A stretch of DNA of 32,000 bases from Sinorhizobium meliloti (GTDB lineage: Bacteria; Pseudomonadota; Alphaproteobacteria; Rhizobiales; Rhizobiaceae), in the NCBI RefSeq assembly GCF_017876815.1, contig NZ_JAGIOS010000001.1, positions 3,000,001-3,032,000 on the forward strand. The letters run 5' to 3'. Positions 17,684-32,000 of this stretch are shown here, one piece after another. A program made the translations under genes and the position numbers. Within the stretch, counting starts at the first letter, position 1; every line of letters begins with the position of its first letter. The notes under the pieces were generated by a model. It searched no databases and had not been told where the DNA came from. It saw only the letters and a program-made list of their open reading frames with translations.

Positions 17684-20600
17684 ATGCATCTCCTCCTAGC
17701 TCAGAAAGGAACGATCGCCGACGGTAATGAGGCGATCGACCTCGGACAGAGCCCGGGCGACATATTGTTCCTGTCGGCGGCCGATACGGAACTTGCCTCG
17801 ATCGCGGCTGCCCATCGTCAGCGCGCGGGCGCAAGAAGCCTGCGGATCGCCAGCCTGATGAATCTCATGCACCCCATGTCGGTCGACACTTACGTCGAAC
17901 GCACGGCGAGGCATGCGAAGCTGATCGTCGTACGGCCGCTGGGTGGTGCGAGCTACTTCCGTTACGTCCTGGAGGCGCTCTACGCCGCGGCGGTTGCGAA
18001 TAAATTCCAGATCGCCGTGTTGCCGGGCGACGACAAGCCAGACCCGGGCCTCGACCCGTTTTCCACCGTATCGGTGGAAGACCGGCAGCGCCTTTGGGGG
18101 TATTGCACCGAAGGCGGCGCGGAGAATGCCGGCCTTTTCCTCGATTACGCGCAGGCATTGATCGACGGCGGCGACAAGCCGCAGCCGGCGCGGCCGCTGC
18201 TCAAGGCCGGCATATGGTGGCCGGGCAGGGGCGTGATCGGCGTCGAGGAATGGGTTCGCCTATCCGAACTGCGTCGGGCTGTACCCACCGCGCAGGCGGA
18301 CAGAGCGGAACACGAACCCACCGTCGCCGTCTGCTTCTACCGCGCGCTCGTCCAGAGCGGGGAGACGAAACCGGTAGAGGCGCTGATCGAGGCGCTTGCG
18401 GCCGAGGGCGTGCGGGCACTCCCCGTTTTCGTCTCCAGCCTCAAGGATCCGGTCTCGATCGGCACGCTCGAAGCGGTCTTCGCCGAAGCCCTTCCGGATG
18501 TCGTGATGAACGCCACGGGCTTTGCCGTTTCCGCACCGGGCGCGGACCGCCAGCCGACCGTGCTCGAATCGGGCGGCGCGCCGGTGCTGCAGGTCATCTT
18601 TTCCGGGTCGTCGCGGGAGGGCTGGGAAACTTCGGCTCAAGGGCTGATGGCCCGCGATCTCGGCATGAATGTCGCGTTGCCGGAGGTGGACGGGCGGGTT
18701 CTCTCCCGTGCCGTTTCCTTCAAGGCAGCCTCGGTTTACGACCCGCTGGTGGAGGCCAATATCGTCGGCCACGAGCCGCTTGCCGATCGCGCGCGCTTCG
18801 CGGCACGCCTCGCCGCCAATTGGACGAAGCTGCGCCGGACCCGGCCCGAGGGCCGCCGGGTCGCAATCGTCATGGCCAACTATCCGAACCGCGACGGGCG
18901 CCTCGGAAACGGCGTGGGTCTCGATACGCCTGCCGGCACGATTGAAGTGCTGAAGGCGATGACGGCAGAAGGCTACGCTGTCGGCAATGTTCCTGATGAC
19001 GGCGACGCGCTGATCGGCTTTCTGATGGCCGGGCCGACCAATGCGGCGAGCCGCGACCGGGAAATCCGCGAAACCATTTCCTTGAATCGCTACAAGGGTT
19101 TCTTCGACGCGCTTCCGAAAAAGATTCAAGAGGAAGTGACCGCGCGCTGGGGTGCGGCGGAGGCCGATCCCTTCTTCATCGACGGCGTATTCGCCCTGCC
19201 GCTCGCGCGCTTCGGCGATGTGCTCGTGGGCATCCAGCCGGCGCGTGGCTACAACATCGATCCCAAGGAAACCTATCACGCTCCGGACCTCGTGCCGCCG
19301 CACGGCTATCTGGCTTTCTATGCCTATCTGCGCGAGGTCTTCGGTGCCCATGCGATCGTCCATATGGGCAAGCACGGCAACCTCGAATGGCTTCCCGGAA
19401 AGGCGCTGGCGCTTTCCGAAGAATGCTACCCCGAGGTGATATTCGGCCCGATGCCGCATCTTTATCCCTTCATCGTCAACGATCCCGGCGAAGGCACACA
19501 GGCCAAGCGGCGGACGAGCGCCGTCATCATCGACCATCTGACGCCACCTTTGACGCGGGCGGAGTCCTACGGACCGCTCAAGGACCTGGAGGCGCTGGTC
19601 GACGAATATTACGAGGCCGCGGGCGGCGATCCGCGGCGGCTGAGGCTGCTCAGCCGGCAGATCCTCGATCTCGTCCGCGACATCGGCCTCGACCACGACG
19701 CCGGGATCGAGAAGGGCGACAGCGAGAACCGGGCGCTCGAAAAACTCGACGCCTATCTCTGCGACCTCAAGGAAATGCAGATCCGCGACGGCTTGCATGT
19801 TTTCGGCCTGGCGCCGGAAGGTCGGCTCTTGACCGATCTTACGGTCGCGCTCGCCCGTGTGCCGCGGGGTCTGGGTGAGGGCGGAGATCAGAGCCTGCAA
19901 CGGGCAATCGCGGTGGACTTGGGGTTGCACGCGGCTTCACGCTCGCAACGCCCGCAACCATTCGACCCGCTCGATTGCGTCATGTCCGATCCCTGGGCCG
20001 GCCTGAAGCCCGATCTTCTCGCCGCCCTCTCGGATGCGCCATGGCGCACCGCCGGCGACACGGTCGAGCGCATCGAACTGCTTGCGGCGAAGCTCGTTTC
20101 AGGCGAAATAGCCTGTCCGGTGGGATGGACCAACACCCGCGCCGTACTTGCCGTGATCGAGACGCGGCTGAAGCCTTCGATCCAAAGCTCCGGCGAGGCG
20201 GAAATAAAGGGTCTGCTGACGGGCCTCGACGGCCGGTTTGTCGCCCCCGGTCCCTCGGGTGCGCCGACGCGCGGCCGTCCGGACGTGCTGCCGACGGGGC
20301 GCAACTTCTATTCGGTGGACAGCCGCTCCGTGCCGACCCCGGCGGCCTACGAGCTCGGCAAGAAATCGGCGGAGCTGCTCATCCGCCGCTACCTGCAGGA
20401 CCATGGCGAATGGCCGTCCTCCTTCGGTCTCACGGCCTGGGGCACCTCCAACATGCGTACCGGCGGAGACGATATCGCCCAGGCTTTGGCACTGATCGGA
20501 GCAAAGCCCGTCTGGGACATGGCCTCGCGCCGCGTGACCGGGTACGAAATCATTCCGCTTGCCGTTCTCGGCCGTCCCCGTGTCGACGTCACCTTGCGTA

Positions 20601-21511
20601 TTTCCGGCTTCTTCCGCGACGCCTTTCCCGAGCAGATAGCACTCTTCGACAAGGCGGTCCGCGCGGTCGGCGCGCTCGACGAGGACGATGCCGACAATAT
20701 GATCGCCGCCCGCATGCGTGCCGAAACGCGGCGGTGGGAAGAGCGGGGCGCCGACGCGAAGGAGGCTCGACGCCGTGCCTCCTATCGCGTCTTCGGTTCG
20801 AAACCCGGCGCTTACGGAGCGGGCCTGCAGGCGCTTGTCGACGAGAAGGGCTGGGAAACGCGCGGCGATCTTGCCGAGGCTTACCTCAGCTGGGGCGGCT
20901 ACGCCTACGGTGCCGGCGAGGATGGAAAGGCGGAGCGCGGCCTTTTCGAGGAGCGTCTGCGCTCGATCGAAGCCGTGGTCCAGAACCAGGACAATCGCGA
21001 GCACGATCTGCTCGACAGCGACGACTACTACCAGTTCGAGGGGGGCATGAGCGCCGCGGCCGAGCATCTCGGCGGCCAGCGCCCGGCCATCTACCACAAC
21101 GACCATTCGCGCCCCGAAAAGCCGGTCATCCGCTCGCTCGAGGAGGAGATCGGCCGCGTGGTGCGTGCCCGCGTTGTCAATCCGAAGTGGATCGACGGCG
21201 TGATGCGCCACGGCTACAAGGGAGCCTTCGAAATCGCCGCGACGGTCGATTACATGTTCGCCTTCGCTGCGACCACCGGGGCGGTCCGCGATCATCACTT
21301 CGAGGCAGCCTATCAGGCCTATATCGCCGACGAGAAAGTCCTCGGGTTCCTGCGCGAAAAGAACCCGGCCGCGCTTTCGGAAATATCGGAGAGGCTGCTG
21401 GAGGCGATCGACCGCGGCCTATGGAACCCGCGCTCCAATTCGGCGCGATTCGAACTGAACAGCCTTTCCGGCCGCGCGGCTACCGACCGTCTGATGGCCG
21501 GAAATCAATAG
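17684..21511 (+). CDS. cobN: aerobic cobaltochelatase large subunit CobN
   Basis: 1275 aa, with the typical MHLLLAQ N-terminus. CobN/Mg-chelatase H-family blocks run throughout (GKHGNLEWLPGK, LPTGRNFYS, FGLTAWGTSNMRTGGDD). Confidence 0.97.
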   Translation: MHLLLAQKGTIADGNEAIDLGQSPGDILFLSAADTELASIAAAHRQRAGARSLRIASLMNLMHPMSVDTYVERTARHAKLIVVRPLGGASYFRYVLEALYAAAVANKFQIAVLPGDDKPDPGLDPFSTVSVEDRQRLWGYCTEGGAENAGLFLDYAQALIDGGDKPQPARPLLKAGIWWPGRGVIGVEEWVRLSELRRAVPTAQADRAEHEPTVAVCFYRALVQSGETKPVEALIEALAAEGVRALPVFVSSLKDPVSIGTLEAVFAEALPDVVMNATGFAVSAPGADRQPTVLESGGAPVLQVIFSGSSREGWETSAQGLMARDLGMNVALPEVDGRVLSRAVSFKAASVYDPLVEANIVGHEPLADRARFAARLAANWTKLRRTRPEGRRVAIVMANYPNRDGRLGNGVGLDTPAGTIEVLKAMTAEGYAVGNVPDDGDALIGFLMAGPTNAASRDREIRETISLNRYKGFFDALPKKIQEEVTARWGAAEADPFFIDGVFALPLARFGDVLVGIQPARGYNIDPKETYHAPDLVPPHGYLAFYAYLREVFGAHAIVHMGKHGNLEWLPGKALALSEECYPEVIFGPMPHLYPFIVNDPGEGTQAKRRTSAVIIDHLTPPLTRAESYGPLKDLEALVDEYYEAAGGDPRRLRLLSRQILDLVRDIGLDHDAGIEKGDSENRALEKLDAYLCDLKEMQIRDGLHVFGLAPEGRLLTDLTVALARVPRGLGEGGDQSLQRAIAVDLGLHAASRSQRPQPFDPLDCVMSDPWAGLKPDLLAALSDAPWRTAGDTVERIELLAAKLVSGEIACPVGWTNTRAVLAVIETRLKPSIQSSGEAEIKGLLTGLDGRFVAPGPSGAPTRGRPDVLPTGRNFYSVDSRSVPTPAAYELGKKSAELLIRRYLQDHGEWPSSFGLTAWGTSNMRTGGDDIAQALALIGAKPVWDMASRRVTGYEIIPLAVLGRPRVDVTLRISGFFRDAFPEQIALFDKAVRAVGALDEDDADNMIAARMRAETRRWEERGADAKEARRRASYRVFGSKPGAYGAGLQALVDEKGWETRGDLAEAYLSWGGYAYGAGEDGKAERGLFEERLRSIEAVVQNQDNREHDLLDSDDYYQFEGGMSAAAEHLGGQRPAIYHNDHSRPEKPVIRSLEEEIGRVVRARVVNPKWIDGVMRHGYKGAFEIAATVDYMFAFAATTGAVRDHHFEAAYQAYIADEKVLGFLREKNPAALSEISERLLEAIDRGLWNPRSNSARFELNSLSGRAATDRLMAGNQ

Positions 21512-21521
21512 GGAGGACATC

Positions 21522-22166
21522 ATGAACGACGAGACCGCGAATACCGGCGAACCGATCGCCGAGAAGGATGAAGCGCGTCACGCCATGAAGATGGCGAAGA
21601 AGAAGACCGCCCGTGACAAGATCATGGCCACCAAGACGGACGAAAAAGGCTTGATCATCGTCCACACCGGCAAGGGCAAGGGCAAGTCGACTGCCGGATT
21701 CGGCATGATCTTTCGCCACATCGCCCACGGAATGCCCTGCGCCGTCGTTCAGTTCATCAAGGGCGCCATGCACACGGGCGAACGCGACCTGATCGAGAAG
21801 CATTTCGGCGAGATCTGCCAGTTCCACACGCTCGGCGAAGGCTTCACCTGGGAAACGCAGGATCGCGCGCGCGACATTGCCATGGCGGCGAAGGCCTGGG
21901 AAAAGGCCAAGGAGCTCATCCGCGACGAACGCAACTCCATGGTGCTCCTCGACGAGATCAACATCGCGCTGCGCTACGACTATATCGACGTCGCCGAGGT
22001 CGTAAGCTTCCTCAAGGAAGAGAAGCCGCACATGACGCATGTGGTCCTGACCGGCCGAAATGCCAAGGAAGACCTGATCGAGATCGCCGATCTGGTGACG
22101 GAGATGGAGCTGGTGAAGCATCCCTTCCGCTCGGGAATCAAGGGCCAGAAGGGCGTCGAATTCTGA
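21522..22166 (+). CDS. cobO: cob(I)yrinic acid a,c-diamide adenosyltransferase
   Basis: Motifs are the GKGKGKSTAG P-loop, FIKG, LDEINIALRY and VLTGRNA. GGGAGGA precedes the ATG, 10 nt after the cobN stop. Confidence 0.93.
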   Translation: MNDETANTGEPIAEKDEARHAMKMAKKKTARDKIMATKTDEKGLIIVHTGKGKGKSTAGFGMIFRHIAHGMPCAVVQFIKGAMHTGERDLIEKHFGEICQFHTLGEGFTWETQDRARDIAMAAKAWEKAKELIRDERNSMVLLDEINIALRYDYIDVAEVVSFLKEEKPHMTHVVLTGRNAKEDLIEIADLVTEMELVKHPFRSGIKGQKGVEF

Positions 22167-22288
22167 TGACGCAGAGCTGGCAGCTATTGGCGCTGCTCTC
22201 CGCAGCGCTGACTGCCGTCTTCGCCAAAATCGTCGCCGCTATGTCCATTCGTATTGACAAGTCGTATCCTAGCGTTAGGCTTGGCTGA
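22166..22288 (+). pseudogene. stump of a small EamA/DMT-type membrane protein gene, translationally coupled to cobO
   Basis: ATG 22166 overlaps the cobO stop (TGATG). MTQSWQLLALLSAALTAVFAKI matches the N-terminal TM1 pattern of small EamA-family proteins. From about 22233 the reading (VAAMSIRIDKSYPSVRLG, then stop) loses the family pattern and GC content drops. Confidence 0.5.
22254..22281 (+). promoter_or_regulatory. possible sigma70-type promoter for the amiC operon
   Basis: TTGACA (22254-22259), a 16-nt spacer, then TAGGCT (22276-22281), within the low-GC junction segment. Confidence 0.3.
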
Positions 22289-22307
22289 AATTATCTGTCG
22301 GCATCTG

Positions 22308-22347
22308 GGCCTCGAAGAGAAACTTTGTTTCTCTGCGGGGCCTTTTT
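22308..22347 (+). terminator. strong intrinsic terminator 15 nt upstream of the amiC start codon
   Basis: GGCCTCGAAGAGAAAC-TTT-GTTTCTCTGCGGGGCC forms a 16-position stem (14 Watson-Crick pairs, 1 GU, 1 mismatch) followed by TTTTT (22343-22347). Confidence 0.75.
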
Positions 22348-22362
22348 GCATTTGAGGGGCGA

Positions 22363-23529
22363 ATGACAGGCAACGTTACCTACCCGGTGGGAGTATTGTT
22401 CTCGCGGAGCGGCAGCTATGCGCAGCCGGCGGGCCAGGGCTTTGGCGGCGCGATGGCAGCGATCGAGCATGTCAATGCATCCCGGCGTTTCCCGTTCAGG
22501 CTCGAGGCCCATCATTTCGATCCCGCGGGCGAGGCGGATCGCTATGCACCGTTTTGCAGGCAACTGATCCGCGAGCACGGTGTGCGCCATGTGGTGGGCT
22601 GCACCACCTCCTGGAGCCGCAAGGAAGTGATTCCCGTGGTCGAGAAGCTCGACGCGCTGCTCTGGTATCCATGCGTCTATGAAGGTTTCGAGGTTTCCGA
22701 AAACCTTATCTACGTTGCCGCCTGTGCCAACCAGCACCTGGTGCCGCTTCTCGACTATATCGCGCCGCGCTTCGGCAGCAGGGCGATGCTTGTCGGCTCC
22801 AACTATATCTGGGGCTGGGAGACCAACCGGATCGCACGCGACATTCTCCATCGCTCGGGCGGCGAGATCCTGGGCGAGCGTTTCGTGTCGATGGGAGACA
22901 CGGATATCGCCCATCTGATCGACGAGGTGCGCGAGAAGAAACCGGATTTTATCCTGAACAACCTGATCGGACCGTCGTCCTACGCTTTTCTGCGCGCACT
23001 TCAGGCTCTCGCTGAAGCAGATGATCGCTTCCATCCGGATAGATGCCCGGTCATCAGCTGCAATCTGTACGAGGGCGAGATCGCCGGGCTCGGACACGCC
23101 GCGGCGGGACATTTCACGGTCAGCTGCTATTTCCGCACGATCCAGTCGCCCGAAAACGACTCCTTCCTGAAGACACTTGCGGCGCTGGATCCGGGTGCCG
23201 TGGTCGATGCCTTCTATGTGCAGGCATTCAGTGCCGTGGTGATGATCGCCGAGGCGATCGCGCGCAGCGGCAGCGACGATGCGGATCTTGTACGCGCCGC
23301 CCTGTGCGGGCAGGCAGTCGACACGCCGCTCGGGGCCATCAGCGTCGATCGATGGACGAACCACGTGGAATTGCCTGCCCATATCGGCCGCGCGGGTGCG
23401 GATGGCAGTTTCGAGATCGTCAAGCGCTCGTATGAAGCCATCGCGCCGGATCCGTTCCTGACATCCACGCCGCTTGTCCGCCCGTTGGGGCGGGACGAGG
23501 GGCGGCCCGAACTGAAGGTGGTGAAATGA
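22363..23529 (+). CDS. amiC: AmiC-like cytoplasmic amide sensor (periplasmic-binding-protein fold, no signal peptide), negative regulator of AmiR
   Basis: It aligns by eye along its length with P. aeruginosa AmiC. Shared blocks are VGVLFS, DRYAPFCRQLI..GVRHVVGC, VIPVVEKLDALLWYPCVYEGFE, APDPF. GAGGGG RBS at 22354-22359. Confidence 0.88.
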   Translation: MTGNVTYPVGVLFSRSGSYAQPAGQGFGGAMAAIEHVNASRRFPFRLEAHHFDPAGEADRYAPFCRQLIREHGVRHVVGCTTSWSRKEVIPVVEKLDALLWYPCVYEGFEVSENLIYVAACANQHLVPLLDYIAPRFGSRAMLVGSNYIWGWETNRIARDILHRSGGEILGERFVSMGDTDIAHLIDEVREKKPDFILNNLIGPSSYAFLRALQALAEADDRFHPDRCPVISCNLYEGEIAGLGHAAAGHFTVSCYFRTIQSPENDSFLKTLAALDPGAVVDAFYVQAFSAVVMIAEAIARSGSDDADLVRAALCGQAVDTPLGAISVDRWTNHVELPAHIGRAGADGSFEIVKRSYEAIAPDPFLTSTPLVRPLGRDEGRPELKVVK

Positions 23530-24140
23530 GTTCCGTTCATAACACCCCGAATTTCGATGGCTGGCGGGCGCTCATTCTGCACCGGCCGCATCAGAACGTC
23601 GACGCTCTCTTTGCCCAATGCGCCCGCATAGGCATTGCGGCGGAACAGGCCTGGCCGGATTTTCCCAGGGATCGATCTGCAGAGGAGTTCAACGTCCTCC
23701 TGATCGACGCAGATATGGGTCACGACGAGCAATTTCCCTGGCGTCAGGGGGAAGCCCCCTTGCCGATGATCGCACTGATCGGCTCCGAGGCACCCGGCCG
23801 CATCGCCTGGACTATCGCGCAAGGGGCCGACGCGCAGCTCCTGAAGCCCATCGGCAGCGCCGGGCTGTACAGTGCTCTGATGGTCGCAAGCCACAGTTTT
23901 GTCCGCCGCCGTGCGCTCGATCGTGACGTCGCCGCATTGAAGGATCGCCTCGCGCGACGCCAGGAACTTGCGGAGGCGACGGCACTGCTGATGCTCCGGA
24001 AGAACTGCGGGGCCAGCGAAGCCTACCAGCACCTGCGCCTGACCGCGATGTCGCGCAGCTGCAGCATCGAGGACGTCGCTGCGGCCATCGTCCAGGAATT
24101 CGAGAACCACGGATTGAAGAATGCCGACCATGGTCGCTGA
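23526..24140 (+). CDS. amiR: AmiR-type ANTAR antiterminator (pseudo-receiver plus ANTAR domain)
   Basis: The start overlaps the amiC stop (ATGA). The order is an N-terminal receiver-like fold without an obvious phospho-Asp context, a coiled linker, then the ANTAR segment ATALLMLRKNCGASEAYQHLRLTAMSRSCSIEDVAAAIV. Confidence 0.88.
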   Translation: MSSVHNTPNFDGWRALILHRPHQNVDALFAQCARIGIAAEQAWPDFPRDRSAEEFNVLLIDADMGHDEQFPWRQGEAPLPMIALIGSEAPGRIAWTIAQGADAQLLKPIGSAGLYSALMVASHSFVRRRALDRDVAALKDRLARRQELAEATALLMLRKNCGASEAYQHLRLTAMSRSCSIEDVAAAIVQEFENHGLKNADHGR

Positions 24141-25017
24141 AACGGCGCGCAGCAAAGAGAACAGGACACCGGGCGTGTGGACGCGCCTCCTGCACAGGCC
24201 GCTTGCGCTCATCGGTCTTGCGGTTATCATCGTGGTGGTGGGCGCAGCAGCGCTTGCGCCTTGGGTCGTGCCCTATGACCCGCACGAGCAGTTCTTCGAG
24301 GGTCTGACCATCGAAGGCGCGCCGCTGCCGCCCAACAGCCAGTTCTGGCTGGGTACCGACCTTGTCGGACGCGACCTCCTTAGCCGCCTGATCTACGGCG
24401 CGCGCACCTCGCTCGTCATCGGCGTGGTCGCCAATGGCATTGCCGTCGTCATCGGCTCGCTCGTCGGCATTGCAGCCGGCTATTTCCGGGGCTGGGTGGA
24501 CACCGTGCTGATGCGCTTCACCGATCTGATGATGGCCTTTCCGGCACTTCTCCTTGCCATCGTTCTGGCTGCGATCTTCACGCCCAGCCTGTGGATCGTG
24601 GCGATGGTCATCGCCATGGTGAACTGGGTGCAGATCGCCCGCGTCGTCTATACCGAAACCCGCTCGATCGCCGAGCGCGATTTCGTGACTGCCGAGCGGG
24701 CCATGGGCGCCGGCGCCGGACGCATTCTCTTCCGTCACATCCTGCCGCATCTTCTGTCCACGATCATCGTCTGGGCGACGCTCGGCATTGCGACGACTGT
24801 ACTACTGGAGGCGACGCTTTCATTCCTCGGTATCGGCGTGCAGCCGCCCATCCCGTCGTGGGGCAACATCATTTTCGAAAACCAGACCTATTTCACGTCG
24901 GCACCCTGGCTGGTGTTCATACCGGGTGCGGCGATCCTGGCGCTCGCGCTCGCCTTCAACCTGGTCGGCGATGCGCTGCGCGATGTTCTCGATCCGACGC
25001 AGCAGGGGAGGCATTGA
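24121..25017 (+). CDS. ABC transporter permease, DppC/OppC-like
   Basis: Six hydrophobic spans and the EAA-type loop AERAMGAGAGRILFRHILPH. The start (24121 or 24130) overlaps the amiR 3' end. Confidence 0.9.
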   Translation: MPTMVAETARSKENRTPGVWTRLLHRPLALIGLAVIIVVVGAAALAPWVVPYDPHEQFFEGLTIEGAPLPPNSQFWLGTDLVGRDLLSRLIYGARTSLVIGVVANGIAVVIGSLVGIAAGYFRGWVDTVLMRFTDLMMAFPALLLAIVLAAIFTPSLWIVAMVIAMVNWVQIARVVYTETRSIAERDFVTAERAMGAGAGRILFRHILPHLLSTIIVWATLGIATTVLLEATLSFLGIGVQPPIPSWGNIIFENQTYFTSAPWLVFIPGAAILALALAFNLVGDALRDVLDPTQQGRH

Positions 25018-25937
25018 TGGCAGCCTATATCGCGCGGCGACTGCTTCAGACGGTCGTCATCCTGCTTGGCATCAGCTTCGTCACCTTCGTTCTGCTCTAT
25101 CTGATACCGGCCGATCCGGCCAGACAGATCGCCGGCCGCAGCGCAACGGCTCAGACCGTGGAGAACATCCGCGAACAGCTCGGGCTCAACCTGCCCTTCT
25201 ACGAGCAGTATCTGCGTTACGTCACGGGCCTGGTGCAGGGCGACTTCGGCCGCTCCTATCTGCAGAAGACGGAAGTCGCCACTTTGATCGCATCGCGCCT
25301 TCCGGCAAGCCTCGTGCTGATGGCCGGAGCCATCACTTGTGAACTGATCTTCGGGCTCACCATGGGCATCGTCGCGGCGCTCCGGCGCGGCTCACGCACC
25401 GACGATACGCTGATGATCGCGTCTTTCGTCGGGGTGTCGGCGCCGCAATTCGTGATCGGCATCCTGCTGCTTTACGTCTTCGCCGTGAAGCTCGGCTGGT
25501 TCCCGATTGGCGGCTACGGCACCTTCGCCCATCTGGTCCTGCCCTCCGTTACGCTCGGCTTCCTGGGCGCCGGTTGGTATTCGCGCATGATGCGTTCCTC
25601 GCTGATCGAAGTGATGCGCCAGGATTTCATCCGCACGGCGCGCGCAACCGGTGCCGGTCGCGCCAAGGTCCTGTTCCGGCACGCAATGCCCAACGCGATA
25701 CTGCCCGTTATCGCGATGATCGGCATCGACATCGGTCTGTTCATGTCCGGCATCGTGGTGGTGGAAAGCGTCTTCGGCTGGCCCGGCATCGGCCAGCTGG
25801 CCTGGCAGGCGATCCAGCGGGTGGACATCCCGATCATCATGGGCGTCACGCTCGTCTCTGCGTTTGCAATCGTGCTCGGCAACCTGCTCGCCGACCTCAT
25901 CACACCGCTTATCGACCCGCGCATCAAGCTGCGCTGA
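25017..25937 (+). CDS. ABC transporter permease, DppB/OppB-like
   Basis: ATG 25017 overlaps the preceding stop (TGATG), with AGGGGAGG upstream. MAAYIARRLLQTVVILLGISFVTF is the typical N-terminus and the EAA loop is TARATGAGRAKVLFRHAMPNA. Confidence 0.9.
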   Translation: MAAYIARRLLQTVVILLGISFVTFVLLYLIPADPARQIAGRSATAQTVENIREQLGLNLPFYEQYLRYVTGLVQGDFGRSYLQKTEVATLIASRLPASLVLMAGAITCELIFGLTMGIVAALRRGSRTDDTLMIASFVGVSAPQFVIGILLLYVFAVKLGWFPIGGYGTFAHLVLPSVTLGFLGAGWYSRMMRSSLIEVMRQDFIRTARATGAGRAKVLFRHAMPNAILPVIAMIGIDIGLFMSGIVVVESVFGWPGIGQLAWQAIQRVDIPIIMGVTLVSAFAIVLGNLLADLITPLIDPRIKLR

Positions 25938-25978
25938 CGCGGGAAGAAAAAACTGCAGCATCAAGAAAGGAACTTCAG

Positions 25979-27595
25979 ATGAGGAACTTGCTACTGGCCG
26001 GCGTCTGCACCGCCGCACTCATGGGAAATCCCGCGCTTGCCGACGACATCAAGCAGGGTGGCGAAATGACCGTCACCTACAAGGACGACGTTTCGACCCT
26101 CGATCCGGCGATCGGCTACGACTGGCAGAACTGGTCGATGATCAAGTCGCTGTTCGACGGTCTGATGGATTATGTCCCGGGCACGACCGAGCTGCGTCCC
26201 GACCTTGCCGAATCCTACGAAATCTCGGAGGACGGCAAAATCTTCACGTTCAAGCTGCGCAAGGGCGTCAAGTTTCACAACGGCCGCGAGCTGACTGCCC
26301 AAGACGTGAAATATTCGATCGAGCGCGTGGTGAACCCGGCGACCCAGAGCCCGGGTGCCGGGTTCTTTGCAACGATCAAAGGGGTCGAAGAGGCCTCGGC
26401 CGGCAAGGGTGGCGAGCTATCCGGCATCACGGTGCAGGATCCGCACACGATCAGGTTCGAACTGACCCGCCCGGACGCCACTTTCCTCCACGTCATGGCG
26501 CTCAACTTTGCCCATGTCGTGCCGAAGGAGGAGGTCGAGAAACACGGCGCCGATTTCGGTAAGAATCCGGTCGGTTCCGGTGCCTTCAAGCTTGCCGAAT
26601 GGACACTTGGGCAGCGTCTGGTGTTCGAACGCTTCACCGACTATTGGAACGAAGGGCTTCCGAAGCTGGACCGCATCACCTTCGAGGTTGGCCAGGAGCC
26701 GGTCGTTGCGCTTCTTCGCCTGCAGAACGGCGAAATCGACGTGCCCGGAGACGGCATTCCGCCGGCGAAGTTCGTCGAGGTGACGAACGACCCCAACTTC
26801 AAGGATCTGATCATCCGGGGCGGCCAGCTGCACACCGGCTATGTGACGATGAACGTCAAGATGGCTCCCTTCGACAAGGTCGAGGTGCGCAAGGCTGTGA
26901 ACATGGCCATCAACAAGGATCGTATCCTGCGTATCATCAACGGTCGCGCGGTCGCTGCCAACCAGCCGCTGCCGCCCTCGATGCCCGGCTATGCAAAGGA
27001 CTACGCAGGCTATGCCTACGATCCCGAAGGCGCCAAGAAGCTGCTCGAGCAGGCCGGCCTCGGCGACGGGTTCTCGACCGAACTCTATGTCATGAACACC
27101 GACCCGCAGCCGCGCATCGCCCAGGCGATCCAGCAGGATCTGAAGGCGATCGGCATCACGGCATCGATCAAGTCGCTCGCACAGGCCAATGTCATCGCGG
27201 CCGGCGGCGAGGAAAACCAGGCGCCGATGATCTGGTCGGGCGGCATGGCGTGGATTGCCGATTTCCCCGATCCGTCGAACTTCTACGGCCCCATTCTGGG
27301 TTGCGGCGGTGCCGTGCCGGGAGGCTGGAACTGGTCCTGGTACTGCAATGAAGAGCTCGACAAGAAGGCAGCCGAAGCCGACGCCATCGCCGACCCGGCA
27401 AAGGCCGCGGAGCGCGAGGCCCTGTGGCGCGACATCTATCTGAAGATCATGGAGGACGCGCCCTGGGCGCCGATCTTCAACGAGGAGCGCTTCACCATCC
27501 GCTCGGAGCGTATCGGCGGCGACGACAAGCTGTTTGTCGATCCGGTCCACATCCCCGTCCACTACGATCAGGTATATGCAAAAGATGTGCAGTAA
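25979..27595 (+). CDS. ABC transporter substrate-binding protein, family 5 (peptide/opine/nickel type), secreted
   Basis: The track ORF was trimmed to ATG 25979 (AAGAAAGGA upstream). The signal peptide is MRNLLLAGVCTAALMGNPALADD. SBP_bac_5-type blocks are LDPA, KFHNGRELTAQDVKYS and GSGAFKL. Confidence 0.9.
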   Translation: MRNLLLAGVCTAALMGNPALADDIKQGGEMTVTYKDDVSTLDPAIGYDWQNWSMIKSLFDGLMDYVPGTTELRPDLAESYEISEDGKIFTFKLRKGVKFHNGRELTAQDVKYSIERVVNPATQSPGAGFFATIKGVEEASAGKGGELSGITVQDPHTIRFELTRPDATFLHVMALNFAHVVPKEEVEKHGADFGKNPVGSGAFKLAEWTLGQRLVFERFTDYWNEGLPKLDRITFEVGQEPVVALLRLQNGEIDVPGDGIPPAKFVEVTNDPNFKDLIIRGGQLHTGYVTMNVKMAPFDKVEVRKAVNMAINKDRILRIINGRAVAANQPLPPSMPGYAKDYAGYAYDPEGAKKLLEQAGLGDGFSTELYVMNTDPQPRIAQAIQQDLKAIGITASIKSLAQANVIAAGGEENQAPMIWSGGMAWIADFPDPSNFYGPILGCGGAVPGGWNWSWYCNEELDKKAAEADAIADPAKAAEREALWRDIYLKIMEDAPWAPIFNEERFTIRSERIGGDDKLFVDPVHIPVHYDQVYAKDVQ

Positions 27596-28529
27596 CTGCG
27601 ACTACACCATCCACGGACGCCATCACCACTACGGCTGGGATCATTCGATCCCGCCGGTGGAAACCGTGGCGCCCGGATCGCGGCTCGAGTTCAATTGCCT
27701 GGACTCCGGTTCCGGTCATTTCACCGCCGACAGCACGGTTGCCGATGTCTCGACGGTCGATTTCACGAAGGTCAATCCGGTCACCGGTCCCATCTATGTC
27801 GATGGGGCCAAGCCGGGTGACGCCCTGAAGGTGACCATCGAGCACTTCAAGCCGAGCGGCTTTGGCTGGACGGCCAATATTCCGGGCTTCGGGCTCCTCG
27901 CCGACCAGTTCGCGGAGCCGGCGCTGACACTCTGGAAATATGATCCGGCTACGCTCGCTCCCGCAGCCTTTGGCGAGTTCGGCCGGGTTCCTCTGAAGCC
28001 CTTCGCCGGCACGATCGGGCTCGCGCCGGCAGAGCCGGGGCTGCATTCCGTGGTTCCGCCGCGGCGGGTAGGAGGCAATCTCGACATTCGCGACCTGGCG
28101 GCGGGCACAACCCTCTATCTGCCCGTCGAGGTGGAGGGCGCCCTGTTCTCCATCGGCGACACGCATGCGGCGCAGGGCGATGGCGAAGTCTGCGGCACGG
28201 CCATCGAAAGCGCGATGGACGTGGTCCTGAAGCTGGAACTGGTGAAGGACGCCAATCTCAGGATGCCGCGCTTTACCACGCCGGGCCCCGTCACACGGCA
28301 TCTCGATGCCGAGGGCTATGAGGTCACGACCGGTATTGGAAGCGATCTGATGGAAGGTGCGCGGGCGGCCGTGTCCGGCATGATCGACCTTCTCTGTGCG
28401 ACACGCGGCATGAAGCCGGAAGACGCCTACATGCTCTGCTCCGTCTGCGGCGACCTTCGCATCAGCGAGATCGTCGACCAGCCGAACTGGGTCGTGTCCT
28501 TCTATTTCCCGCGCATCGTCTTTGCGTGA
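27576..28529 (+). CDS. acetamidase/formamidase (FmdA_AmdA) family amidase, short (about 315 aa) form
   Basis: Family blocks are [29 protein letters not shown] and [18 protein letters not shown]. The start is ATG 27576 or 27585, overlapping the binding-protein stop. Confidence 0.85.
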
Positions 28530-28536
28530 CGAACCG

Positions 28537-28564
28537 GTCCTGCCCCGCCTCGGCGGGACAGGAC
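28537..28564 (+). other. stable intercistronic hairpin between the amidase and ATPase genes
   Basis: GTCCTGCCCCGC-CTCG-GCGGGACAGGAC forms a 12-position stem with one C/A mismatch and no U-tract. Confidence 0.5.
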
Positions 28565-28598
28565 GTCCTTCCGATGACATTGCCAAGGCCTCTGCCTG

Positions 28599-30380
28599 AT
28601 GACTTCCTCTCTGCTTTCCGTGAAGGATCTGACCGTCCAGGTGGCTACGCCGACCGGGCCGAAGGTCGTGGTGGAGCGTCTGTCCTTCGATCTTCTTCCC
28701 GGCAGGACGCTTTGTCTTGCAGGCGAGAGCGGATCGGGTAAATCGATGACCGCGCTTTCGCTGATGCAGTTGCTGCCGAAGCCGATGGCACGAATTGCGG
28801 GCGGCTCGGCCACTCTCGATGGCGAGGACATATTGGCGCTTCCGGAAGCACGCATGCGGCGGATTCGCGGGCGCAAGATCGGGATGATCTTCCAGGAGCC
28901 GATGACCTCGCTCAATCCGGTGATGACGGTCGGAAATCAGCTGATCGGGGCGATCACCGCCCACGGAAACACCAGTGGCCGGCGCGCCGCGCGGGCGCGG
29001 GCCGCCGAACTCCTGGACCAGGTTCAGATTCCGGAGCCGGAGCGGCGGCTCGGCCAATATCCGCACGAGCTCTCCGGCGGCTTGCGTCAGCGAATCGTCA
29101 TCGCGATGGCGCTCGCGCAAAACCCGAAAATCCTGATCGCCGACGAGCCGACGACGGCGCTCGACGTAACGGTTCAGGCGCAGATCCTGGCCCTTATCCG
29201 CAAGCTGCAGGCCGATCACGGGATTTCGGTGATCATGATCACCCATGACATGGGCGTGGTCGCGGAAATGGCCGACGAGGTGCTGGTGATGAAGCATGGC
29301 CGTACCGTGGAGCACGCAACCAGCAGGGATCTTTTCGCGCATCCGCAGGATGCGTACACGAAGGAGCTCCTATCCGCCGTGCCGCGCCTTGGCGAAATGG
29401 CGGGAACGGAGACGCCGAAGCGTGCAGCGGGGAAGGCGGTCGAGGCAGGATCTGAGCCAGGCGCCGAACAGCCGATGCTCCAGGTCGAGAACCTCACGGT
29501 TCGTTTCGACATAAAGGGCGGCATCCTTCAGCGCCCGGTCAGGCGACTTCACGCGGTGGAGGGCATCTCTTTGTCCGTGCGCAGGGGTGAGACGCTGTCT
29601 CTCGTCGGAGAGTCCGGTTGCGGCAAGTCGACGACCGGCAAGGCGCTCTTGAACCTTGTCCCGTGGACGGGAGACATACGCGTCGACGGACGCTCCACGC
29701 GCGGCTTGCGAGGGAGCACGATGCGGCCCATCCTGCGTGACGTCCAGATGATCTTCCAGGACCCTTACGCATCGCTGGATCCGCGTATGCGGGTCGGCGA
29801 TCTGGTGGCCGAGCCACTTGTGATCCACGGCCTTGCAAGCGGAAGCGAGCTGCGTGACCGGGTGGAGTATCTTTTCAAGCGGGTCGGATTGTCGCCCGAG
29901 CAGATGAAGCGTTACCCGCATGAGTTTTCGGGCGGTCAGCGGCAGCGCATCTGTATCGCGCGCGCCCTGTCTCTCTCACCGAAGCTCATCGTCGCAGATG
30001 AGTCCGTCGCGGCACTCGACGTGTCGATCCAGGCACAGGTGCTCGATCTCCTGCAGGACATCCAGGACGAGACCGGCGTCTCCTACCTGTTTATTTCGCA
30101 CGACATGGCGGTCGTCGAGCAGATCAGCCACCGGGTAGCGGTCATGTACATGGGCCGCTTCGTCGAAATGGGCACGCGGCGGCAGATCTTCGAGAGTCCG
30201 CAGCATCCCTATACGAAGAAACTGATGGCAGCCGTTCCCGTGGCCGATCCGGGCCGAGTACGCCGGGATTTCGTGCCGAAAGCGGAAGACCTGCCGAGTC
30301 CTGTGCGCGCCCTGGATTATGCGCCATCCTTCCCGCCGCCATCGGATCTGGGCGGCGGACATCTCGTCTGGAACGGCTAA
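28599..30380 (+). CDS. fused double ATP-binding protein of a Dpp/Opp-type ABC transporter (DppD-DppF fusion)
   Basis: 593 aa with two complete cassettes. Walker A motifs are GESGSGKS and GESGCGKS. Signatures are LSGGLRQR and FSGGQRQR. Walker B motifs are [12 protein letters not shown] and [12 protein letters not shown]. Confidence 0.92.
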
Positions 30381-30405
30381 TCCGTGGTCAGTTTGGTATT
30401 GTGGC

Positions 30406-31206
30406 CTACAGCCTCAGCCAGATACGCAGCGGATATTCCGGGTCGGCGAGCAGCCGGATGGCGAGCGCGATCGAAACGACGACCAGCAGAGGCTTGATGA
30501 TCTTCGCGCCCTTTGCCATCGCATAGCGCGAGCCGACCTGCGCGCCGAGGAACTGGCCGACGCCCATCGTCAGGCCGATCTTCCAGAGCACGACGCCGCT
30601 GAGCAGGAAGACGAAAAATGCGCCGATATTGGAGCCGAAATTCAGGAATTTCGTGTGCGCCGTCGCCTTGAGGATGCCGTAGCCTGCAAGCGAGACGAAA
30701 CCGAGCATGAAGAAGGAACCTGTGCCCGGACCGAAAACGCCGTCATAGAGGCCGATCAGGGGCACGAAGGTGATTGTGAACAGGAAAACCGACAGGCGCC
30801 GATGCTTGTCGAGGTCGCCGATATTCGGCTTGAAACCGAAGTAGAGCGCGATGCCGATCAACAGGAACGGCAGCACGGCCTCCAGAACGTCCGCGGGAAC
30901 GACCGTCGCCAGCAATGCGCCCAATACCGCGCCTGCCGCCGACATCAGCGCCATCGGGAGTTGCTCTCGGAGGTTCACGTGGCCGTGCCGGGCATAGGCG
31001 ATGCTCGCCGAACCGGAGCCGAAAAGCGACTGCAGCTTGTTGGTGCCGAGCGTCTCGAGCGGTGGAATCCCCGCGATCAGCATGGCCGGGATGGTGATCA
31101 TCCCGCCGCCGCCGGCGATCGAATCGATGAAGCCGGCAAGGAATGCGGCCGCGAAAAGAAAGAGCAGTATGTGGAGGGCCAGGTCGTGCACTGGAGTCTC
31201 GAGCAA
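30406..31206 (-). CDS. TauE/SafE (DUF81) family anion-exporter-type membrane protein
   Basis: The 452-aa track ORF was trimmed. The family region starts about LETPVHDLALHILLFLFAAAFLAGFIDSIAGGGGMITIP, and a second repeat contains GPGTGSFF. There is no in-frame ATG here; candidate starts are TTG 31206 or GTG 31191. Confidence 0.75.
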   Translation of the reverse strand: MLETPVHDLALHILLFLFAAAFLAGFIDSIAGGGGMITIPAMLIAGIPPLETLGTNKLQSLFGSGSASIAYARHGHVNLREQLPMALMSAAGAVLGALLATVVPADVLEAVLPFLLIGIALYFGFKPNIGDLDKHRRLSVFLFTITFVPLIGLYDGVFGPGTGSFFMLGFVSLAGYGILKATAHTKFLNFGSNIGAFFVFLLSGVVLWKIGLTMGVGQFLGAQVGSRYAMAKGAKIIKPLLVVVSIALAIRLLADPEYPLRIWLRL

Positions 31207-31294
31207 ATAGGGCGGCGGGAACTGCTTCAGCCGCCTTGTGTCAGAGGTGACGCCGAAATGCAAAGAATTGTCTGAGGTCGATCCCGTGGCTGCA

Positions 31295-31324
31295 CGGATT
31301 GCGACACGTGGATGGCGCAATCCG
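31295..31324. promoter_or_regulatory. 9-bp perfect inverted repeat in the divergent TauE/cobE intergenic region
   Basis: CGGATTGCG-(12 nt containing CACGTG)-CGCAATCCG. Confidence 0.35.
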
Positions 31325-31482
31325 GTTTGACCGACCTGAAGCGCTCCGATAAAAATGACGATCATGCGACGGCGTCCGTTCAGGCGGACTGAAAGAGCGT
31401 CCGGTGCGGCCGACCCATGCAGGGGGCTTGATCCGGTGCTGTCCGGACCGGTACGTGGCATTTCGCCGGGCCGGCGCTTCGT

Positions 31483-31947
31483 ATGGAACGCCGACGCCGC
31501 ATGGGAGCCGCACCGCATATGCCTTCCGCCGAAGGACACATCACCGCCAAACTTGTGCTCGGCCTTGGCTGCGAGCGCAACACTGCGCCCGAAGAGGTTA
31601 TCGCGCTTGCCGAACAGGCGCTTGCGGACGCCGGCGCTTCCGGCAAGGATGTCGGACTCGTCGCCTCTCTGGATGCGCGGACCGATGAGCCCGCGATCCA
31701 TGCGGTCGCGCGGCACTTTTCGGTGCCCACGCATTTCTTCGACGCTGCCACGCTGGAGGCGCAATCGTCGCGTCTAAAAAATCCATCGAAGGTCGTCTTT
31801 GCCCATACGGGTTGCCACGGCGTCGCTGAGGGCGCGGCCTTGGCGGCCGCAGGGTGCGACGCGGTGCTGCTCGTGCCTAAGATCCGATCGGTGCGGGCGA
31901 CGGCGGCAATCGCCGGACCGGCCGATTATGCAAGGGGAGCCATGTGA
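31483..31947 (+). CDS. cobE: CobE / CbiG C-terminal-domain cobalamin biosynthesis protein
   Basis: The CbiG_C pattern is LVLGLGCERN...VASLDARTDEPAIHAVARHFSVP..F...L......GCHGVAEGAALAAAG..LLVPK. The start is ambiguous (ATG 31483, 31501 or 31519). Confidence 0.7.
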   Translation: MERRRRMGAAPHMPSAEGHITAKLVLGLGCERNTAPEEVIALAEQALADAGASGKDVGLVASLDARTDEPAIHAVARHFSVPTHFFDAATLEAQSSRLKNPSKVVFAHTGCHGVAEGAALAAAGCDAVLLVPKIRSVRATAAIAGPADYARGAM

Positions 31948-32000
31948 TGGCCTCGGGCGAATTTTGCAGTTTCTTTGATGAGCCGATTCAATTATCTGCC

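Follow-up and report, generated by a model that had tools for sequence, protein, structure and literature searches.

In a 32,000-nucleotide (nt) stretch of the Sinorhizobium meliloti chromosome (contig NZ_JAGIOS010000001.1, positions 3,000,001 to 3,032,000; hereafter the window), seven tightly packed co-directional genes occupy positions 22363-30380 of the + strand. They code for an AmiC-like sensor, an AmiR-like antiterminator, two permeases and a periplasmic binding protein of an ATP-binding cassette (ABC) importer, an FmdA_AmdA amidase and a fused ABC ATPase. We propose that the locus is probably an inducible, self-sufficient operon by which L-alpha-amino acid amides are scavenged, and the S. 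meliloti member of the MeAmi-type family. The architecture and the substrate class are already known, since Smith et al. described the same operon with a defined substrate in 2024. An earlier note on this DNA had implied that the arrangement was new, and had itself named a previously characterized cluster with a defined substrate as the finding that would undo this; at the family level, the 2024 study is that finding. In the S. meliloti literature, nothing specific to this operon was found.

One line of evidence comes from the binding protein. In the conserved operon that Smith et al. reported, 610 SBP_bac_5 proteins are encoded together with an FmdA_AmdA amidase and ABC components, and a Peripla_BP_5 protein lacking a signal peptide and an ANTAR protein are encoded at the 5' end; what the amidase acts on, what the cytosolic sensor binds and which RNA is targeted were left open (bioRxiv 10.1101/2024.02.22.581678). 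Their protein from Mesorhizobium sp. AP09, MeAmi_SBP, bound L-alaninamide, L-tyrosinamide and glycinamide with dissociation constants of 1.5 µM, 0.19 µM and 50 µM, respectively, and was cocrystallized with L-serinamide (PDB 8UPI). It requires the alpha-amino group of the ligand, and a loop insertion together with bulky Trp and Tyr residues reduces its pocket to the size of one amino acid amide. No response was seen with about 100 di- and tripeptides, glutathione, octopine, free amino acids, acetamide or glucuronamide (same study). The binding protein of the window aligned to 8UPI over 519 residues without a gap (E = 1e-284, 76.5% identity). All seven ligand residues (Tyr32, Trp34, Met408, Trp410, Ile411, Asp413 and Trp435) and all nine residues of the Ca2+ site (Lys41, Ser42, Phe44, Asp45, Asp49, Asp60, His164, Tyr207 and Asp515) are identical. 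According to the translations, the protein carries a signal peptide, MRNLLLAGVCTAALMGNPALA, and the amidase and the AmiC-like sensor have none. According to the earlier note, an amide larger than acetamide, with an amino acid amide as the first example, would be taken up and hydrolyzed inside the cell. The binding data for the orthologue, the retained ligand residues and the signal-peptide pattern all support this prediction.

The arrangement is widely conserved. Using the amidase alone as an anchor and one genome per species, we found at least 576 confirmed amidase relatives; the loci of the best 80 of these were compared, with gene families assigned by Pfam and NCBIfam and equivalog status judged by the score against the curated cut-off. 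At 66 of the 80 loci, all seven genes recurred in unchanged order and on one strand; the loci come from Hyphomicrobiales, Rhodobacterales, Rhodospirillales and one gammaproteobacterium (L056). Such recurrence shows that the arrangement is not due to chance, and this was the outcome of the gene-neighborhood comparison that had been suggested earlier. A second gammaproteobacterium (L053) has the six other genes plus a reading frame of the ANTAR type that stayed under the search threshold. Other loci are reduced. The transporter-amidase core occurs without amiC and amiR upstream at L037, L054 and L061 and on plasmids of the Rhizobium leguminosarum group, and must be regulated differently there. 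The amidase occurs without the transporter at L009, L034, L049 and L077.

The first two genes encode a sensor and a regulator related to those encoded in the amidase operon of Pseudomonas aeruginosa. The AmiC-like protein aligned with P. aeruginosa AmiC (1PEA/1QO0) over its full length (E = 5e-54, 32% identity), and its N-terminus, MTGNVTYPVGVLF, does not resemble a signal peptide. The AmiR-like protein matched the AmiR chain 1QO0_D along residues 14-186 (E = 9e-11). In AmiC, Tyr83 and Thr233 form a steric gate, and the residues within 5 Å of the ligand have been listed (PMC13531289). Of these pocket positions, Ser85, Arg88, Tyr104, Tyr108, Glu109 and Tyr150 are kept in the window sensor, and the changes are Tyr83 to Thr, Met84 to Thr, Thr106 to Cys, Pro107 to Val, Tyr152 to Trp, Pro153 to Gly and Thr233 to Asn. 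Tyr never occurs at position 83 of the 70 operon-linked homologues compared, which have Val, Ile, Thr or Gln there; all 70 carry Thr at position 84 and Trp at position 152, and 68 carry Asn at position 233. The two residues that close the acetamide-sized pocket of AmiC are thus replaced, in line with the earlier expectation. Retention of the shared pocket together with family-specific opening of the gate fits sensing of a bulkier alpha-substituted amide, such as an amino acid amide. In a 2026 engineering study, the substitutions Y83H, Y83T or Y83C gave an AmiC-AmiR pair responsive to the alpha-amino acid amide (S)-2-aminobutyramide (PMC13531289).

A candidate RNA target of the AmiR-like protein lies in the leader of the operon. 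A consensus scan for promoters and terminators called no promoter upstream of amiC and missed the leader terminator, which was recovered by folding and an inverted-repeat search. This terminator ends 15 nt before the amiC ATG. Its arms are 88% complementary, the stem has a free energy of -19.9 kcal/mol, and the leader fold reaches z = -3.4. At its foot is a mini-hairpin, P2, whose 3' arm GCC (22309-22311) is also part of the 5' terminator arm. Under strict criteria applied to 69 related loci, the terminator opens with the 3' arm of P2 in at least 59, and in most of the others the T-run is interrupted. Elsewhere in the intergenic gaps of the operon, no terminator-like site was found. An Rfam search of positions 21500-31000 (E ≤ 1) returned no relevant family, only one chance snoRNA match (E = 0.74).

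The P2 element is strongly enriched in these leaders. In the 32-kb window, P2 is the single match to GGCANNNNNGCCYYG. Sixty-six leaders upstream of amiC-like genes were aligned, anchored on the GGCA-N5-GCC element. G2, C3, A4, G10 and C11 were invariant, with one compensatory AGC/GCU variant, and the loop consensus was A-W-N-N-R-N, with A at the first loop position (A1) in 66 of 66. Within the 260 nt 5' of amiC, the strict motif had a density of 3.46 per kb, as against 0.028 per kb in the remaining 3 Mb of the loci, a 125-fold enrichment. A custom hairpin search further detected an upstream hairpin, P1, in 53 of the 66 leaders, as compared with 22.4 ± 3.6 (maximum, 32) in dinucleotide shuffles. 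P1 was represented by 31 different stem sequences, its loops have 3-9 nt, and it ends 0-5 nt 5' of P2. RNAalifold on a MAFFT alignment of the leaders recovered P2 alone, because the loop lengths of P1 vary.

On this basis, we propose that the AmiR-like proteins of the family recognize a noncanonical, invariant GGC-A(W)NN(R)N-GCC hairpin at the foot of a terminator that precedes their own genes, which would constitute an autoregulated amide regulon. Most lineages would add a covarying P1, S. meliloti and its nearest relatives would use a single hairpin, and the AmiC pocket would have been retuned in parallel (Tyr83 to Val, Ile or Thr; Thr233 to Asn; Tyr152 to Trp). We consider the evidence for and against this proposal to be evenly balanced. 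If true, it would provide the RNA target that Smith et al. were unable to find and a natural one-hairpin ANTAR site, and Tyr83 is the same position that was hit by directed evolution in 2026.

The most serious remaining alternative concerns the RNA element alone: GGCA-N5-GCC may not be the AmiR target but a DNA operator (a GGC-N6-GCC dyad) or simply the base of the terminator, with AmiR acting elsewhere or in another way, for example by translational control. Several features of the leaders speak for this alternative and against our proposal. G at the fourth loop position (G4) was found in only 6 of the 66 leaders and is U in the window (AUCUGG), so that the loop departs from the canonical A1/G4 pattern. 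The P2 stem has only 3 bp and is nearly invariant, and thus lends little covariation support. In the window and at L002-L005, no P1 of at least 4 bp was found within 6 nt 5' of P2, and ANTAR dimers normally need a second hairpin. A canonical dual-hexaloop (A1/G4) site was not found in the window leader by eye or by script; Smith et al. could not find one either (bioRxiv 10.1101/2024.02.22.581678), probably because the loop sequence is noncanonical. However, the element lies 3' of the putative promoter, abuts an intrinsic terminator and precedes an operon that encodes an ANTAR protein. The same placement is known from published ANTAR systems, in which a mini-hairpin sits at the 5' base of a terminator (PMC3369931) and has an upstream partner (PMC8164766). 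Moreover, A1 is invariant as in canonical sites, the covarying P1 far exceeds its frequency in shuffled leaders and re-creates a dual-hairpin layout, and the intergenic gaps offer no second terminator-like site. We regard a non-AmiR role of the element as a real but rather unlikely possibility.

Two other features of the window leader were noted. The hairpin CCU-AGCGUU-AGG at 22272-22283 has A1 and G4, but it was set aside, as it overlaps the putative -10 box and is not conserved in L002-L005. The pentamer ATCTG occurs twice, 10 nt apart, in the unstructured leader (22293-22297) and in the P2 loop (22303-22307). This repeat, which may be due to chance, is not conserved in L002-L005; AUCUG-type loops are present in the upstream hairpin of L012, L029 and L045.

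The amidase belongs to the acetamidase/formamidase Pfam family and resembles 300-amino-acid (aa) "acetamidases" from structural genomics (E about 1e-38 to 1e-40). Its nearest relatives are 314-aa proteins with 78-88% identity, which occur throughout the alphaproteobacteria, including Brucella/Ochrobactrum, and for its own 90% cluster the name given in S. meliloti 2011 is "putative L-amidase". In Brucella (Ochrobactrum) anthropi, a complete seven-gene operon (L005) includes the gene for a 314-aa protein that shares 80-81% identity with the window enzyme. The L-amidase of O. anthropi NCIMB 40321, described by Sonke et al. in 2005, is reportedly a metal-dependent enzyme of 314 aa, and is said to act on L-alpha-amino acid amides and not on simple aliphatic amides or dipeptides. 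The length and activity so reported match the length of the window enzyme and the ligands of the binding protein. The passage of PMC7431475 that mentions the O. anthropi L-amidase (Sonke et al. 2005, AEM 71:7961) cites it as a formamidase-family enzyme. We treat the presumed orthology between this enzyme and the window amidase as a lead.

The family membership of the amidase, the AmiC match, matches of the sensor to urea-binding proteins (E about 1e-40) and the retained Ser85, Tyr104 and Tyr150 could also suggest a system for short-chain aliphatic amides, formamide or urea, of the amiEBCRS or Methylophilus fmd/Urt type, with a sensor for acetamide-sized ligands. The scores do not bear this out. 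The amidase reached 130 bits against the 500-bit cut-off of the formamidase equivalog NF045496, whose profile of a protein of about 407 aa was matched only in part, and the sensor reached 237 against 493 bits for UrtA (TIGR03407). Furthermore, the orthologous binding protein rejects acetamide and requires an alpha-amino group, and other residues occupy the gate positions Y83 and T233 in all, or nearly all, of the sensors linked to the operon. Thus, a small-amide system is improbable.

By annotation, the transporter looks like a di- or oligopeptide or glutathione importer of the Dpp/Opp/Gsi type, to which the amidase would contribute as an accessory peptidase-like enzyme. The best NCBIfam matches are DppA and GsiB for the binding protein, GsiA for the ATPase and Opp, Gsi and Dpp members for the permeases, and the next PDB matches of the binding protein after 8UPI are dipeptide-binding proteins with about 30% identity. 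However, each equivalog score remained far below its curated cut-off: 231 versus 1005 bits for DppA, 143 versus 947 for OppA, 216 versus 594 for GsiB and 720 versus 1077 for GsiA, and the same holds for all equivalogs matched by the two permeases. The orthologue with 76% identity bound none of about 100 di- and tripeptides and no glutathione, and the residues that shrink its pocket are kept in the window protein. We consider peptide or glutathione import very unlikely.

In the window, the operon lies between cobN-cobO (17684-22166) and a convergent TSUP transporter gene with further cob genes (30406-32000), and strain Ak57, to which the window is 98.7% identical, has the same surroundings. A cobalamin-related role suggested by this location, such as uptake or deamidation of a corrinoid amide precursor, was rejected and is hardly credible: at each of the 80 related loci, cobN, cobO and the TSUP gene were all missing from the 10 kb around the amidase, no flanking family is conserved, and the pocket has the size of one amino acid amide. 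A search of the 4.5-kb flanks for conserved accessory genes yielded nothing but ABC transporter genes that are unrelated. The linkage to cob, seen only in Sinorhizobium, is incidental, and the operon has the character of a self-sufficient module that came to lie within the cob cluster. Directly 3' of the cobO stop codon, a long imperfect hairpin without a T-run (22171-22222), the core of which is unique in the window, may end or stabilize the cob transcript upstream of the amide operon promoter. The Ak57 record (CP090106.1, L001, from PLSDB) is titled "plasmid pSymB", yet it has 3.72 Mb and contains the cob cluster; it looks like a mislabeled chromosome-sized replicon.

For an operon that scavenges L-amino acid amides, we suggest the following mechanism. 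Its observed basis is the gene content and order, the junctions, the family assignments, the conserved residues and the conserved hairpin/terminator of the leader; the ligands of the S. meliloti proteins, the specificity of the amidase, sequestration and binding of AmiR to the leader are inferred. Transcription would start from the promoter at about 22254-22281 and yield a short leader, and most transcripts would end at the terminator. Transcripts that read through would give the translationally coupled AmiC-like sensor and AmiR-like antiterminator. In the periplasm, the binding protein would capture L-amino acid amides, holding the alpha-amino group by the equivalent of Asp413 and the carboxamide by backbone carbonyls and the equivalent of Trp34, and would hand them to the two permeases, driven by the fused ATPase. 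The imported amide would bind to the AmiC-like sensor through its opened gate, and AmiR would be released. Binding of AmiR to the GGC-AUCUGG-GCC hairpin would then withhold bases needed for the terminator stem beside the U-tract, so that all seven genes are transcribed by read-through. Finally, the 314-aa amidase would convert the amide to the L-amino acid and ammonia, which would feed nitrogen and carbon metabolism, and the inducer would be consumed. As the regulators are encoded downstream of their own terminator, induction would be self-reinforcing (positive feedback), unlike in P. aeruginosa, where amiE comes first.

Four points call for caution regarding this interpretation. L-Amino acid amides are not known as abundant natural compounds. 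The physiological substrate may therefore be another molecule with an alpha-amino carboxamide group, a caveat that Smith et al. also raise. The L-selectivity predicted for the amidase depends on its presumed orthology to the enzyme of O. anthropi. Sensing of the imported compound by the AmiC-like protein, which the earlier note also predicted, is an inference here as in the literature, and the promoter was placed from the sequence alone. Regarding the promoter, TTGACA-N16-TAGGCT is also present in L002, and boxes similar to TAGGCT, TACGCT or TAAGCT are found 12-16 nt 5' of the leader hairpins at many loci.

The features of the locus are listed below. Junctions were read from the open reading frame (ORF) table and the sequence.

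Features of the predicted amide operon and its leader in the window
Feature	Position	Strand	Details
Putative sigma-70-type promoter	22254-22281	+	-35 TTGACA at 22254-22259, 16-nt spacer, -10-like TAGGCT at 22276-22281
Mini-hairpin P2, candidate AmiR (ANTAR) site	22300-22311	+	GGC / hexaloop AUCUGG / GCC
Intrinsic terminator	22308-22347	+	16-nt arms 22308-22323 and 22327-22342, 3-nt loop, T5 at 22343-22347
Shine-Dalgarno-like GAGGGG for the amiC-like gene	22354-22359	+	Read from sequence
AmiC-like cytoplasmic ligand sensor	22363-23529	+	388 aa; Peripla_BP_5, E = 8e-107; without signal peptide
AmiR-like antiterminator	23526-24140	+	204 aa; AmiR_N pseudo-receiver 45 bits and ANTAR 45 bits, both above cut-off
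ABC permease, OppC/DppC type	24121-25017	+	298 aa; OppC_N and BPD_transp_1
ABC permease, OppB/DppB type	25017-25937	+	306 aa; BPD_transp_1_N and BPD_transp_1
Periplasmic family-5 solute-binding protein, predicted L-amino acid amide binder	25979-27595	+	538 aa; SBP_bac_5, E = 5e-104
FmdA_AmdA amidase, cytoplasmic, predicted L-selective alpha-amino acid amidase	27585-28529	+	314 aa; E = 5e-60, 204 bits
Fused double ABC ATPase, GsiA/YejF-like architecture	28599-30380	+	593 aa; two ABC_tran and oligo_HPY

Pfam and NCBIfam confirmed the seven genes, their domain content and their strand as given in the earlier note. Of the junctions it had described, the amiC/amiR ATGA overlap (23526-23529), the amiR/permease overlap (24121-24140) and the permease/permease TGATG (25015-25019) are present as stated. 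The binding-protein and amidase genes do overlap, but probably by 11 nt (27585-27595) rather than by the 20 nt proposed: ATG 27585 is the likelier amidase start, being that of the homologue consensus, PGAP and most database entries, and ATG 27576 would give 317 aa. Position 22254, taken earlier as the start of the cluster, is the beginning of the TTGACA -35-like hexamer, and the AmiC ORF begins at 22363.

The amiR/permease overlap measures 20 nt, and PGAP picks the same permease start in Ak57. In that strain, the PGAP names are generic ("ABC transporter", "acetamidase/formamidase family protein"). A 1-nt deletion in a G5 run (window positions 23746-23750; L001 about 7547) frameshifts amiR, which is absent from the coding-sequence table of the Ak57 record; amiR of the window is intact. 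Either Ak57 is a natural regulator-null variant, or the deletion is a sequencing error in the homopolymer.

The only gaps in the operon are 41 nt (25938-25978) and 69 nt (28530-28598) long. The longer of the two separates the amidase gene from the ATPase gene; it folds with -29.1 kcal/mol and contains a GC-rich intercistronic hairpin without a T-run (28537-28564, + strand). A hairpin or a long repeat is usual in this gap at related loci: 59 of 73 gaps fold below -15 kcal/mol, a count taken without a control. The hairpin may act on mRNA stability or polarity and in this way fix how much binding protein and amidase is made relative to ATPase. At L004, L006, L014, L016, L017, L022, L026 and L032 (several Mesorhizobium and related), the gap extends to 200-400 nt. 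The expanded gaps contain structured repeats with palindromes of the CCCCCTC...GAGGGGG type (-110 to -204 kcal/mol), which resemble rhizobial intergenic mosaic or repetitive extragenic palindrome (REP)-like elements.

The labels "peptide ABC transporter" and "acetamidase" thus appear to hide a dedicated L-amino acid amide scavenging system, which is widespread in rhizobia, Rhodobacterales and their relatives, as judged from the species-level amidase set. For S. meliloti, seven genes receive an annotation that can be tested, and the locus offers a candidate for an inducible switch that responds to amides. Three leads go beyond the 2024 paper: the leader hairpin/terminator as a likely AmiR target, the natural variants of the AmiC gate, and the link to the O. 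anthropi L-amidase. They may help in amide biosensor design and in studies of ANTAR recognition, and the natural gate substitutions match engineered ones.

Among known systems, the MeAmi operon is closest. Its gene content and order are identical to those of the window, and the binding proteins share the ligand and Ca2+ residues. The differences lie in the organism and in the genomic context, the S. meliloti operon being inside the cob cluster. The MeAmi paper does not cite the O. anthropi L-amidase, which shares its Pfam family with the window enzyme and was studied as an industrial biocatalyst, without operon context. The amiEBCRS operon of P. aeruginosa (1PEA/1QO0) likewise combines an AmiC-type sensor, an AmiR_N/ANTAR protein, a leader terminator and an amide substrate from which ammonia is released. 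In contrast to it, the window operon has its regulators first, downstream of the terminator; its enzyme is FmdA_AmdA and not the nitrilase-superfamily AmiE; a family-5 ABC importer takes the place of AmiS/AmiB; and the sensor, at 32% identity, lacks the Y83/T233 gate.

The transporter shares with GsiABCD and DppABCDF of Escherichia coli a family-5 binding protein and OppB/OppC-type permeases, and its fused two-domain ATPase is Gsi-like. It differs from them in its subthreshold equivalog scores, in an orthologue that rejects peptides and glutathione, in the embedded amidase and in the predicted ANTAR control. Finally, the leader element resembles the canonical ANTAR targets of Enterococcus faecalis eut, Klebsiella oxytoca nasF and P. 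aeruginosa amiE (Ramesh et al. 2012) in its 3-bp stem, a hexaloop that starts with A, its site at the 5' base of a terminator with which it is mutually exclusive and, in most relatives, a second hairpin a few nucleotides upstream. It departs from them in that the fourth loop position is rarely G in this family and in the P1 hairpin, whose loops vary from 3 to 9 nt and which S. meliloti and its closest relatives lack.

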